Positions 1,636 through 47,574 of a stretch of DNA of 47,574 nt are shown in pieces. A model generated the notes under the pieces. It did no database searches. It was not told the origin of the DNA and was given only the letters and a program-made list of their open reading frames with translations. The position numbers were made by a program, and so were the translations under genes. The stretch's first letter is position 1; every line of letters starts with the position of its first letter. Source of the stretch: Escherichia phage RobRod40; the sequence record OR896835.1; one strand, written 5' to 3'.

Positions 1636-2112
1636 ATGAATTGGGCTGAATTTTTTAGATACGAAGATGGAAATCTGGTAAGGGTTATCACAACCTCAAG
1701 TAGAGCTATTGAGGGCATGGTTGCTGGAAGCTTGCCTGGCAATGGCTATCTGCACATAAGAATAGGCGACAGGCGTGTAAAAAACCATCGCATAATTTGG
1801 GAGATGCACAATGGAAGGATACCAGAAGGGATGGAGATATATCATATCAATCACATAAAGACAGATAACAGGATCGAGAATTTAAGGCTCGTAAGTCACA
1901 AACAGAACCTATCAAACGCATCGCTTAGGTCCGACTCGTCAACTGGTACGAGTGGCGTTAGTTGGAACAGAAACAGGCAGAAGTGGCACGCTTATATAAA
2001 GTCTAACTACAAGAGGATGCACATAGGATTTTTTGATTCCTTTGATAACGCCGTAGCAGCAAGAAAGAAAAAGGAGATTGAACTGGGATTTCATGAGAAT
2101 CACGGAAAATAG
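1636..2112 (+). CDS. HNH homing endonuclease (paralog 1)
   Basis: MNW..F.Y.DG N-terminus, WEMHNG and HINHIKTDNRIENLR motifs; RBS AAGAGGG upstream; shares these motifs with three other ORFs in window. Confidence 0.85.
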   Translation: MNWAEFFRYEDGNLVRVITTSSRAIEGMVAGSLPGNGYLHIRIGDRRVKNHRIIWEMHNGRIPEGMEIYHINHIKTDNRIENLRLVSHKQNLSNASLRSDSSTGTSGVSWNRNRQKWHAYIKSNYKRMHIGFFDSFDNAVAARKKKEIELGFHENHGK

Positions 2113-2152
2113 CACTAATTGCTAAACATCAACACCAAGTATGGAGTATAGT
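2109..2152 (+). promoter_or_regulatory. conserved promoter-like module (ATAGCAC-taa-TTGCTAAA, 22 bp, TATAGT)
   Basis: Stop TAG of HNH embedded; followed by TACCTCACGAAAACGAG leader and RBS. Confidence 0.6.
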
Positions 2153-2183
2153 TACCTCACGAAAACGAGAGGAGAAAAGACAA

Positions 2184-2570
2184 ATGAAAAGCATTTCAAA
2201 AGCTGTATATCTTGGCAACACTAATGGGGAGTATTATGGTTTTACTGTAGGTAATACATATAGTGTTAAATATTTTGAAGCTATAAGTGAAAACTGTTTT
2301 TGGTGTTCAGATGATGATGGTGTTTACCGATATGTCAAAAACGGACCATTGCACAAGTTTAAACTAAGTGATGAGGATGGCTATTTTGTAACTGAGGCTG
2401 AATGCGAAGTCATGCCCCCTATAGACGATAAAAAACCCGAGCTTAGATATTACATCAACGGACATGAGGTTGACGTGATTGAGTTCGGAAATGTTGGCCG
2501 TACTGTATATGAGCTTGATCGGGATGGCATAAAGTGCGACACAATCAAGTTCGAAGTAAAATTCGAGTAA
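2184..2570 (+). CDS. hypothetical protein (accessory gene between HNH and portal)
   Basis: 128-aa ORF with RBS GAGAGGAG; own upstream promoter-like module and downstream terminator. Confidence 0.6.
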   Translation: MKSISKAVYLGNTNGEYYGFTVGNTYSVKYFEAISENCFWCSDDDGVYRYVKNGPLHKFKLSDEDGYFVTEAECEVMPPIDDKKPELRYYINGHEVDVIEFGNVGRTVYELDRDGIKCDTIKFEVKFE

Positions 2571-2592
2571 CCATAAAAGCTATGATAAACTA

Positions 2593-2616
2593 AGCCCCTA
2601 TATGGGGCTTTTTTAT
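2593..2616 (+). terminator. rho-independent terminator
   Basis: GC hairpin AGCCCC-tata-GGGGCT followed by T-run. Confidence 0.7.
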
Positions 2617-2627
2617 TGGAGAAAAAC

Positions 2628-3881
2628 ATGGTCAAGACAGACAGCTACGCCAATATCTTTCTCGGCGGTAGTGATGGTAGTGAGATTTACGGAAGTTTAC
2701 AGAATCAGGCACCAACAATTCTGGCCTCGCTTTACGCGGATAATGCTCTAGTGCGTCGAATTATCGACACAATCCCAGAGACGGCATTGGCGGCAGGATT
2801 CCATATTGATGGTATTGATGATGAGCCTGCATTCTGGTCGCGCTGGGATGATTTAGAAATGACGCAGAATATTAACGATGCATGGTCATGGGCTAGGTTG
2901 TTCGGCGGGGCTGCTATTGTCGCTATCGTTAAGGACAATAGAGCGCTAACAAGTCCGGTAAGAGAAGGAGCGGAACTTGAAACTGTTCGCGTTTACGACC
3001 GTACACAAGTAAAGGTTCAAACTCGCGAGGAGAATCCACGCAATGCACGTTTTGGTAAGCCACTTACCTATCGCATCACCACTAACGAAAGCGATATGTT
3101 TTACGATGTGCATTACAGCCGCATTCACGTCATCGATGGCGAGAGAATTCCTAACGTAATGCGTCGGCAAAATGATGGCTGGGGCCGCAGCGTTCTTTCC
3201 AGTGATATTCTTGACTCAATCAAGGATTACACCAATTGCGAACGACTCGCCACCCAGCTGCTGAGACGCAAGCAACAGGCGGTGTGGAAAGCCAAAGGTC
3301 TGGCTGAGCTGTGTGATGATAGCGAAGGATTTGGTGCCGCGCGCTTGCGACTTGCTCAGGTAGATAACAACAGTGGAGTTGGTCAGGCGATTGGTATTGA
3401 CGCGGAATCTGAAGAATATAGCGTTCTAAACTCTGATATTGGCGGGATTGATGCGTTTCTGGACAAGAAGCTCGATAGAATCGTTGCACTGAGCGGTATT
3501 CATGAAATAATCCTGAAGAACAAGAACGTTGGCGGTGTATCATCAAGCCAGAACACGGCTTTGGAGACATTCCACAAGCTAGTTGACCGCAAGCGTAATA
3601 GCGAGCTACTTCCTATTCTTGAGTTCTTAATCCCGTTCATTGTTAATGTGTCTGAATGGTCAGTGGAGTTTAACCCATTAGCTCAGGAGTCAAGCAAGGA
3701 TAAAGCGGAAATTCTGGAGAAGAACGTAAACAGCATCGCGGCACTAATTGCAGCTGGAGCTATGGATACTAACGAGGCTCGTGATACACTACGCACTATC
3801 GCGCCAGAGATTAAGATTGGTGATGGTGATATTGAGGCTCCGGAACAAGAACCCGCAGAGGAGGTTGTGATTAATGAGTAA
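2628..3881 (+). CDS. portal protein
   Basis: ~417-aa ORF after terL; ATG at 2628 preceded by GGAG (ORF-track start 2616 is TTG); size and position typical of siphovirus portal. Confidence 0.7.
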   Translation: MVKTDSYANIFLGGSDGSEIYGSLQNQAPTILASLYADNALVRRIIDTIPETALAAGFHIDGIDDEPAFWSRWDDLEMTQNINDAWSWARLFGGAAIVAIVKDNRALTSPVREGAELETVRVYDRTQVKVQTREENPRNARFGKPLTYRITTNESDMFYDVHYSRIHVIDGERIPNVMRRQNDGWGRSVLSSDILDSIKDYTNCERLATQLLRRKQQAVWKAKGLAELCDDSEGFGAARLRLAQVDNNSGVGQAIGIDAESEEYSVLNSDIGGIDAFLDKKLDRIVALSGIHEIILKNKNVGGVSSSQNTALETFHKLVDRKRNSELLPILEFLIPFIVNVSEWSVEFNPLAQESSKDKAEILEKNVNSIAALIAAGAMDTNEARDTLRTIAPEIKIGDGDIEAPEQEPAEEVVINE

Positions 3882-46382: not shown

Positions 46383-46425
46383 AAAGTGTTATACCCTCGT
46401 TAAGTTTCGTTTCTCTCGTTGTTTT

Positions 46426-46450
46426 TAGCCCTCGCTTGAGGGCTTTTTTT
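46426..46450 (+). terminator. rho-independent terminator
   Basis: AGCCCT-cgcttg-AGGGCT then TTTTTTT. Confidence 0.7.
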
Positions 46451-46470
46451 CGTCTGTAATATGGTATAAT
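46442..46470 (+). promoter_or_regulatory. candidate promoter with perfect -10 TATAAT upstream of terS
   Basis: TATAAT at 46465-46470 directly after terminator; AACAAAGGAGGA RBS. Confidence 0.3.
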
Positions 46471-46494
46471 CTGGCATCAACAAAGGAGGATTAA

Positions 46495-47001
46495 ATGAGC
46501 AAAGCAGCATTAAAGATGGGCGAAGGAAATTTTAAGGCGCTCTACAACAAGAAGTATGGCGATATTGCTATGGTGGCGATCAACCGCAAGTACACGCCGG
46601 AAGAGGTGTTTGATTTCGCGGTGAGATACTTCTCCTGGGCAGAGAGTGAAGCAATCAAAGCAATTGAGACGGCGGCATTCCAGGGCGTGGTTAGTGAAAG
46701 CCTTGTGCACAAGCCGCGCGTGTTCACCTTAACAGGACTGGCACTCTTCATTGGTGTTAACATCAATAGATTTGCTCGCTGGCGTACTGAGGCTGGATAC
46801 TCTGATGTGATGGAATTCATTGATAACGTAATCTACGAGCAGAAATATCAGCTTGGCGTTGCAGGCATCATCAACTCCACCATCGTTGGTAAAGAGCTTG
46901 GTATTGATAAGCCGCAGGAAATCACAATTAGCAACAACTCCACAGCTAACGACGTTGATAGTATGAAGGAAGCGCTGGAGTCTGTGATTAGTAAGCTATA
47001 G
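46495..47001 (+). CDS. putative terminase small subunit
   Basis: 168-aa ORF with RBS AAAGGAGGA and TATAAT promoter; located just upstream (circularly) of terL. Confidence 0.5.
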   Translation: MSKAALKMGEGNFKALYNKKYGDIAMVAINRKYTPEEVFDFAVRYFSWAESEAIKAIETAAFQGVVSESLVHKPRVFTLTGLALFIGVNINRFARWRTEAGYSDVMEFIDNVIYEQKYQLGVAGIINSTIVGKELGIDKPQEITISNNSTANDVDSMKEALESVISKL

Positions 47002-47041
47002 CACTTTTTGTTAAAAGAAGAGGCTCAATCAATGAGATAAT
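46998..47041 (+). promoter_or_regulatory. conserved promoter-like module (ATAGCAC-ttt-TTGTTAAA, 22 bp, GATAAT)
   Basis: terS stop TAG embedded; spacer palindrome CTCAatcaaTGAG; precedes HNH paralog 4. Confidence 0.55.
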
Positions 47042-47069
47042 GGTCCCAACAAACTAACGAGGTCGCGAT

Positions 47070-47574
47070 ATGAATTGGCATGATTATTTTGAATACAAAG
47101 ATGGGAAGATTTACTGGAAAGATTACGATAGCGAGAGGCTTGGAAGGAGAAGGATACAGCGAAGATTCATAGGGAAAGAGGTTGGCGGCATTGATAAAAG
47201 CCTGGGGTATGTCAGGGTAAACATGCCAGGTAAAAAATATTGGGTTCATAGAATAATCTGGGAGATGCATAACGGAGCAATACCAGAAGGCATGCAAATT
47301 GACCATATAAATCATGTTAGAAATGATAATAGGATAGAAAACCTTAGGTTAGTTACAATTCAGGAAAATAGAAAGAATCAGTCAATAAATTCGAGGAATA
47401 AGACCGGGGTTATCGGAGTCTGCATAGTATCTAGGACTGGCAAGTATGCAGCTCAAATAAAAAAGGATGGAGAGAATATTCACTTGGGATTCTTTGATAA
47501 TATTCACGACGCGTCGATTGTCAGGGCGAGAGCTGAATTTATTCTTGGGTATCATAAAAACCACGGGAGGAAAG
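47070..47574 (+). CDS. HNH homing endonuclease (paralog 4), 3' end truncated by window
   Basis: MNWHDYFEYKDGKIYW, HRIIWEMHNG, IDHINHVRNDNRIENLR motifs; open to window end; promoter-like module upstream. Confidence 0.8.
   Translation, partial: MNWHDYFEYKDGKIYWKDYDSERLGRRRIQRRFIGKEVGGIDKSLGYVRVNMPGKKYWVHRIIWEMHNGAIPEGMQIDHINHVRNDNRIENLRLVTIQENRKNQSINSRNKTGVIGVCIVSRTGKYAAQIKKDGENIHLGFFDNIHDASIVRARAEFILGYHKNHGRK

Follow-up and report, generated by a model that had tools for sequence, protein, structure and literature searches.

The genome of Escherichia phage RobRod40 (OR896835.1; 47,574 nucleotides (nt), the whole of which is called the window here) carries four open reading frames (ORFs) predicted to be free-standing, I-HmuI-like HNH homing endonuclease genes, each combining an HNH_3 domain with an AP2-like tail. 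They are numbered HNH1 (1636-2112, plus strand), HNH2 (10611-11096, plus), HNH3 (29450-29929, minus) and HNH4 (47070 to the end, plus). With a probability of about 0.78, their usual mobile unit would be a 21-nt repeat together with the HNH ORF, and recombination between copies of the repeat would act as a second route of movement. Homing endonuclease genes are already annotated in relatives among the T1/Rtp-like phages, and their presence is routine; the modestly new point is that HNH genes in T1-like phages appear usually to carry a private subclass of the 21-nt repeat.

In a mixed infection, the enzyme would cut or nick a related phage's allele that lacks the HNH gene, close to the point where that gene is itself inserted; recombinational repair would then give the recipient a copy of the gene along with part of its flanks. 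The unit so transferred would comprise a T1-type repeat of the T subclass, a short spacer, a -10 hexamer, a short leader and the HNH ORF, placed exactly between a stop codon and the start of the next gene. Because the repeats also bound cassettes that encode no nuclease, exchange between them may move genes as well.

By megablast, the whole window is an Rtp-like coliphage (Drexlerviridae, Braunvirinae). Its structural genes are 85-89% identical to those of AugustePiccard, Rtp, FP and BEK2 over 60-78% coverage, and the replication half is similar. The last ORF can be read across the 47574/1 junction, and once the end is joined to the start the alignment to FP and BEK2 continues uninterrupted. 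The window thus represents an entire Drexlerviridae genome, circularly permuted and opened at the terL ATG.

All four ORFs score 65-80 bits with Pfam HNH_3 (PF13392), where the cutoff is 24.8 (E 1e-18 to 1e-23), and match the "HNH endonuclease" family phrog_99 at E 1e-43 to 1e-58; HNH1 has an additional weak Pfam match to AP2. A profile of the four proteins and six relatives aligns to residues 1-116 of I-HmuI (1U3E) at E 5.8e-10 and to the AP2 protein WRI1 at E 8e-4. Pairwise identity among the four is 38-44%, which makes them old paralogs. The original prediction, made from the letters of the window, had placed four paralogous HNH genes at these positions, and its coordinates are right. The neighbours it named also agree with the Pfam and phrog matches once the list is taken in genome order: terS-HNH4-terL; terL-HNH1-rtp22-like virion protein gene-portal; tail terminator-HNH2-major tail protein (MTP); and helix-turn-helix (HTH) regulator-HNH3-primase. 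The motifs it described are broadly shared, except that MNW is absent from HNH2 (which begins MKDF) and IDHIN reads IYHIN in HNH1. The catalytic D-H...N...N residues are intact in HNH2, HNH3 and HNH4 (IDHIN...DNRIENL...N..N).

Each of the four sites is empty in most relatives. In megablast searches of 50,697 phage records, the alleles of HNH1, HNH2, HNH3 and HNH4 occur in 1, 0, 12 and 4 other records, whereas 108-277 records are related to the flanks. Between copies the identity is 96-99.6%, compared with about 85-88% for the rest of the genomes that carry them, and the inserts have clean boundaries that coincide with stop and start codons. A signature of recent lateral transfer, with the flanks co-converted, is seen at HNH1 and HNH3 and weakly at HNH4; HNH2 has no close copy. 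The proposed invasion of polymorphic intergenic sites is supported: alignment of the four proteins and comparison with HNH-free relatives gave insertion boundaries, and HNH genes do not occupy the same positions throughout the relatives.

The 21-nt module and its link to HNH genes

The repeat, or module, ATAGCACnnnTTGCTAAA occurs 18 times in the window at ≤2 mismatches, against 0.16 copies expected. Its consensus across these copies is taAATAGCACtaaTTGcTAAA, and the ATG follows 60-89 nt from the module start. In 15 of the 18, a TATAnT hexamer lies at a fixed 22 nt downstream of the module, and most are followed downstream by a CATCGAAACGA-like leader, a ribosome-binding site (RBS) and a start codon. 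Seven relatives, including T1, hold 15-20 copies each. The reannotation of phage TLS describes a repeat with consensus aaATAGCACnnnTTGnTAAAA that occurs 18-21 times, some 76 nt ahead of start codons, and reports it also in T1, Rtp and Rogue1 (PMC11447400). Its authors leave the function open between a stoperator, an enhancer-binding site and an UP element, and do not mention endonucleases (PMC11447400); the T1-like phage paper of Niu 2014 is silent on both the repeat and HNH genes. The window module agrees with the TLS direct repeat in consensus, intergenic position, orientation along transcription, spacing to starts and copy number.

TTGCTA was considered as a -35 hexamer and ruled out by the fixed 22-nt spacer to TATAGT. 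Since this spacing excludes it as an ordinary -35, we call the module a promoter-associated upstream box and infer its promoter role. A consensus promoter scanner finds only a poor TAAACA-18-TATAGT here. The box of all 18 modules includes the palindromic sequence TAGCA-N5-TGCTA, whose centre lies about 42 nt before the likely start site (for example in the modules at 24885, 32968, 39443 (minus), 43883 and 44778), and nine of the 18 have a significant stem-loop, located in the spacer or with the -10 hexamer enclosed in its loop. Palindrome, fixed gap and stem-loops together suggest an activator-dependent or a composite terminator/promoter element.

The original prediction saw a module before three of the four HNH genes. 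That before HNH4 is canonical; the one before HNH1 is degenerate, with three mismatches, and the one claimed for HNH3 is resident coding sequence with four mismatches. Within this single genome the association is no better than chance, because about a quarter of all genes (~17 of 80) have a module, and one in four HNH genes at ≤2 mismatches is too small a sample to be informative; comparative counts were used for this reason. Across eight complete genomes, a module lies 66-72 nt upstream of 12 of 17 HNH genes, versus 134 of 606 other coding sequences with a module (Fisher p 4e-5, a value that ignores shared ancestry). HNH-linked modules are of the T type in 11 of 12 cases versus 49 of 135 for the others (p 2e-4) and contain TTGT in 8 of 12 versus 31 of 135; the CATCGAAACGA leader follows none of the 12 versus 53 of 135 (p 0.004).

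Several late-operon junctions have gained module and HNH gene together: L-to-K in Rtp and JulesPiccard, tape measure protein (TMP)-to-M in JeanPiccard, and tail terminator-to-MTP in phiEB49. These junctions are free of modules in relatives, and each insert begins exactly at the stop codon plus TAGCAC. In an HNH profile scan of IMG/VR, the module was absent from all 80 unrelated viral contigs with HNH_3 homologs; it is therefore a trait of this phage lineage and not of the HNH family. The proposal that the nuclease travels with its promoter in a single cassette is supported by the late-operon inserts, the T-type subclass and co-occurrence between terS and terL at all examined loci except one (L012). 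The companion idea, that the module seeds insertion sites, holds at terL-portal and at an exonuclease site in AugustePiccard and T1; it does not hold at the other sites, and non-nuclease cargo is seeded equally.

At that exonuclease site, AugustePiccard (L001, 39136-39711) and T1 (L096, 41956-42527) carry an extra HNH gene between two modules after a DNA-repair exonuclease gene. The corresponding window position, 35974, has a single module and no HNH gene, and is predicted to be a fifth, currently empty homing site.

One further perfect module, at 28466-28483 (plus strand) and followed by TATAAA, points rightward into the ends of the minus-strand primase and HNH3 genes. No plus-strand gene lies behind it; it overlaps the predicted start of the tail-fibre ORF, abuts the primase terminator and is an orphan or antisense copy.

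The four insertion sites

HNH4 (47070-47574, plus strand) lies between terS (46495-47001; PF16677) and terL (1-1572). The gene is not truncated: in the joined sequence it reads through the junction, ends ...HKNHGRKDE* with TGA at bases 6-8 and encodes 170 amino acids. It overlaps the terL ATG by 8 nt, exactly as rtp20 and rtp21 do in Rtp, and its last codons hold the terL RBS, GGGAGGAAAG. Upstream is a T-type module with one mismatch, ATAGCACTTTTTGTTAAA (46998-47041, plus strand, including a 20-nt spacer and a -10-like GATAAT at 47036-47041), which overlaps the terS stop codon, lies 72 nt before the HNH4 ATG and is assigned to the HNH4 cassette. HNH4 would be the intact form of the unit. Copies at 95.8-98% nucleotide identity are limited to four records (BEK2, BEK3, 2725-N35 and FP).

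Occupancy of this site was followed in 14 related loci, with T1 checked in addition; a terS scan of IMG/VR, which served this purpose, gave a small sample of nine loci, mostly the same GenBank phages. Module and HNH gene occur together at six loci, representing five distinct genomes (window, Rtp, JeanPiccard, FP and BEK2), and the alleles can be as dissimilar as 34-40% amino acid identity, as with the different alleles in Rtp and JeanPiccard. Neither module nor HNH gene is present at 8 of the 14 loci (seven distinct genomes) or in T1, and terS and terL are about 25-100 nt apart at HNH-free loci.

HNH1 (1636-2112, plus strand) sits between terL and the rtp22-like virion protein gene and portal. 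It is found in one other record only, AugustePiccard, at 97.9% nucleotide identity, and sliding identity between the two genomes reveals an island of 97-98% at 1501-2100 with flanks at 54-89%. Two modules enclose the gene. The upstream one, ATAGCACTTTATGCAAAG (1569-1612, plus strand, including a hairpin-bearing spacer and a weak -10, TAACAT), is degenerate with three mismatches, overlaps the terL stop codon and lies 67 nt upstream of HNH1. The downstream one, ATAGCACTAATTGCTAAA (2109-2152, plus strand, then TATAGT), is perfect, overlaps the HNH1 stop codon and is predicted to drive the ORF at 2184-2570. This second module is the counterpart of the single resident module found after the terL stop in the HNH-free phages Rtp, BEK2 and JulesPiccard. 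Rtp 8423-8459 aligns to two window stretches, 1567-1603 and 2107-2143; the single Rtp module thus matches both window copies, which points to a promoter duplication bracketing an insert of about 540 bp. HNH1 would have entered a site that already held a module, so that the degraded copy now drives HNH1 and the intact copy serves the downstream gene.

The terL-portal junction takes three forms in relatives: empty, module plus rtp22-like ORF, or module plus a different HNH gene (L009). In the window and AugustePiccard the order is degraded module, HNH1, intact module, ORF. The rtp22-like virion structural protein gene (phrog_14592) and its module are themselves an indel (window 2109-2575; L003 2590-2640; L004 7463-7515): terL leads straight to the terminator and portal in JeanPiccard, FP, DTL and others, and the rtp22-like ORF is only 32-63% identical among its carriers. 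In HNH1 the DH motif carries a private D69Y substitution (IYHINH; codon 69 at 1840-1842), and the AugustePiccard ortholog, 96% identical, retains IDHINH. In the profile alignment, this residue corresponds to Asp74 of I-HmuI, a metal ligand.

HNH3 (29450-29929, minus strand) lies between the HTH regulator and primase genes, and its stop codon shares bases with the ATG of the primase gene (ATGA). It is shared with 12 records, including CEB_EC3a, DTL, AugustePiccard, IME542 and TR1, at 99.0-99.6% nucleotide identity. Upstream is a composite (29951-30004, minus strand) in which a module-like sequence, GCAGCACGAAAAGCTAAA (29987-30004), is followed by the stop codon of the regulator and by the hairpin of an intrinsic terminator (29951-29974), whose loop contains CATAAT. 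The module-like part has four mismatches and falls within the regulator ORF, at its 3' end. In the HNH-free phages Rtp and JeanPiccard this pseudo-module and terminator are also present, with the primase directly after, so the composite is not part of the HNH3 insert; the T1 annotation also places a terminator at this position. The insertion point follows the T-run of the terminator, and HNH3 would be a promoter-less insert that uses the resident promoter/terminator composite.

The identity island around HNH3 relative to AugustePiccard (29101-30000, 97-99%) extends 350 nt into the primase gene. The 5' third of that gene (29101-29453, minus strand, codons 1-120), which encodes a Zn-ribbon domain, forms an allele co-inherited with HNH3: it is 41-52% identical at the amino acid level to HNH3-free Braunvirinae relatives, versus 90-100% identity of the remaining 190 residues in JeanPiccard and JulesPiccard. 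This 5' third is likely the target or immunity region, and mosaic and island together would fit what break repair with co-conversion and a target allele resistant to cleavage should produce. At the same junction, BEK2 (L005, 30100-30500) and JulesPiccard (L097, 28283-28605) carry a cassette with a 62-amino-acid ORF between regulator and primase. On both sides it has a direct repeat of GCACGAAAAGCTAAAGA, which is the pseudo-module embedded in coding sequence; in these phages a proper spacer, TATGGT and a CATCGAAA leader come after that sequence.

The HNH2 cassette (10603-11126, plus strand; ORF 10611-11096) replaces a 15-nt spacer between the tail terminator and major tail protein genes; six relatives have this spacer where the window has about 520 bp. 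No module lies upstream of HNH2, and the gene has no megablast match among the phage records searched. Its closest copy, phiEB49 gp45 (71% amino acid identity), sits at the corresponding site, shares the 3' junction and is preceded by a one-mismatch module. The window gene has probably lost the module that this ortholog kept, and would now ride the late tail operon.

The 3' end of HNH2 contributes a new Shine-Dalgarno sequence for the major tail protein, GGAGGTG (11113-11119), and the insert alters the start of that gene from ATG to ATT (11124-11126). Window 11106-11129 and phiEB49 (L015) 2985-3010 both read ATT ATT GCC, behind a strong Shine-Dalgarno sequence (GGAGGTG), in place of the tail protein ATG. 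Because phiEB49 has no in-frame ATG, GTG or TTG from the HNH stop codon to the conserved AHLS, the abundant major tail protein apparently starts at ATT in HNH2-bearing phages. HNH2 and the tail protein share a frame, nine codons apart. A start at TTG 11125 was rejected, as it is in the wrong frame.

Apart from these sites, the head-gene block at 5265-7605 holds an insertion of about 2.1-2.3 kb relative to Rtp, JeanPiccard, FP and BEK2. It contains a 477-amino-acid ORF (6162-7595) with a counterpart in AugustePiccard that has been annotated as a collagen repeat protein, and there is no module at its edges.

Weighing the explanations

Several observations count against a repeat-plus-nuclease unit spread by homing. 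The window copy of HNH1 may be inactive, given D69Y. At L012 the HNH gene between terS and terL lacks a module and has another kind of promoter, a sigma-70-like one, and the identity island at HNH4 is weak (94-98% versus 88-95%). The 22-nt spacer from TTGCTA to TATAGT is longer than a normal sigma-70 -35/-10 pair allows, and the comparative counts are not phylogenetically independent, with the T-type enrichment falling to p ~0.01 when they are collapsed to seven independent sites.

The cassettes might instead move by homologous recombination between modules, with HNH genes as one cargo and nuclease activity playing no part in placing them, much like the shuffling of PeSL elements in T4-type phages. 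Module-flanked inserts without a nuclease, whose overlapping alignments mark a duplicated module, speak for this: a Dcm methyltransferase in JeanPiccard (20979-21709), FP_0043 in FP (27230-27787), JulesPiccard 45297-45510, and window 43077-43883 and 43079-44328, with a 247-amino-acid ORF at 43143-43886. The rtp22-like ORF with its module is likewise an indel at terL-portal, AugustePiccard has a module and an unknown ORF at the L-to-K junction where Rtp has module and HNH, and the small BEK2 ORF lies between direct repeats of the pseudo-module. About half of the window modules also have a significant stem-loop at the -10, like PeSLs (PMC2839356). Against these stand the HNH inserts with a single module in otherwise module-free junctions (terS-terL, TMP-to-M, L-to-K and tail terminator-to-MTP), where module-module exchange is impossible; the lack of a cassette-borne module at HNH2 and HNH3 in the window; and the co-conversion-like island into primase, which is typical of break repair. 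Among 135 pairwise indels, a module lies at an edge in just 41, where roughly 16% would be expected at random; because this enrichment is modest, no claim is made that modules bound most indels, and module-bounded indels appear to be one contributor rather than the rule. Placement by module recombination with no role for the nuclease is therefore considered rather unlikely.

The association could also be incidental, as intergenic HNH genes would often land behind a module when about a quarter of genes have one. The window frequency of one in four HNH genes, close to that of all genes, fits such a view, as do the module-like sequence at HNH3, which pre-exists in HNH-free genomes, and the location of HNH1 and the exonuclease-site HNH of AugustePiccard and T1 at resident modules. 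It accords poorly with the excess of upstream modules at HNH genes over other genes, with the joint gain or loss of module and HNH at terS-terL (L012 excepted), with modules that arrive together with HNH genes in otherwise module-free late tail operons, and with the distinct character of the HNH-linked modules, which form their own subclass at a fixed 71-72 nt from the ATG without the CATCGAAACGA leader. Pure coincidence is thus improbable.

The original prediction had also allowed that the HNH gene between terS and terL serves the terminase, which would make HNH4 an accessory nuclease of the HK97 gp74 kind, for genome cutting at packaging, and not a selfish gene. Its position between the terminase genes, the 8-nt overlap with the terL start and the embedded RBS are in keeping with this, and some HNH gene of varying sequence occurs at the site in the window, Rtp, JeanPiccard, FP, BEK2 and L012. 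HK97 gp74-type HNH proteins are reportedly terminase cofactors (Moodley 2012; Kala 2014), and the terminase-associated HNH proteins are said to be of the small PF01844 type (Kala et al. 2014). The gp74-type HNH proteins accompany cos phages. Such cofactors are also mentioned in PMC9410871, and T1-like phages package by a pac/headful mechanism (PMC11447400). HNH4 resembles gp74 in adjoining the terminase genes; it differs in Pfam family, in belonging to a pac-type and not a cos-type phage, in lying between terS and terL where gp74-type genes lie upstream of terS, and in being missing from many close relatives. In 8 of the 14 loci and in T1, terS is followed directly by terL; HNH4 has PF13392 as its sole Pfam match, ends in an AP2-like DNA-binding tail and is paralogous to three further copies in the genome; and terS is of the P22 gp3 pac type. 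The terminase reading is consequently dismissed as extremely improbable, and homing of a repeat-plus-nuclease unit is preferred at this site too.

Known systems and significance

The closest parallels are the free-standing homing endonuclease genes of T4-like phages, the mob (HNH) and seg (GIY-YIG) genes (PMC2988022; mobE, PMC2790892; SegB, PMC2330249), for which break repair with co-conversion and a resistant target allele has been described (PMC2988022). Like these, the window genes are intergenic, oriented as their neighbours, sporadic and inherited together with adjoining sequence of the target gene; a phage-type promoter of their own lies upstream of some, others are promoter-less cassettes, and the promoter or RBS of the downstream essential gene is kept within or after the endonuclease gene. 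They differ in residing in Drexlerviridae siphophages, in their HNH_3 plus AP2-like architecture and in a promoter of the T1-type 21-nt repeat with its own module subclass.

I-HmuI is an intron-encoded HNH nicking endonuclease of Bacillus phage SPO1 (1U3E). Within the profile alignment, the window proteins share its N-terminal M(N/E)W..I..Y DNA-binding strands and its DH...N...N catalytic motif; unlike I-HmuI, their genes are free-standing, their C-terminal part is AP2-like in place of the helical/HTH modules, and identity is low.

The module is identical to the TLS repeat in consensus and shares its copy number (~18-21), direction along transcription, distance to starts (~72-85 nt) and division into A, T and G subgroups. 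Beyond the TLS paper are the fixed 22-nt distance to TATAnT, the position at the boundaries of indel cassettes and the travel of the T type with HNH genes. The T4-type PeSLs (PMC2839356, PMC4122927) are similarly a promoter plus stem-loop motif repeated before many small accessory genes, which bounds indels or replacements between close relatives and is duplicated around inserted genes. The sequences are unrelated, however, and the window stem-loop, significant in about half of the modules, is placed either around the -10 or between it and the upstream box. A link to homing endonucleases is not a described feature of PeSLs, and the likeness is one of functional analogy.

For each insertion there is now a base-level map of the sequence replaced, the promoter or RBS supplied to the essential neighbour and the target-gene segment that travels along. 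A published 21-nt repeat of open function becomes linked to cassette mobility, which gives a testable handle on the question left by the TLS authors. The hot-spot junctions terS-terL, terL-portal, tail terminator-MTP and regulator-primase matter for engineering or comparing such widely used coliphages as BASEL Bas01-03, Rtp and T1, since crosses may be biased there by endonuclease-mediated marker exclusion. More tentatively, and with doubts that outweigh confidence, the repeat may be the 5' boundary of portable expression cassettes, whose T-type subclass with its private leader would have co-evolved with, and been spread by, the HNH genes. Homing and module recombination would then seed promoters even in late structural operons and drive much of the accessory mosaicism of the Drexlerviridae.

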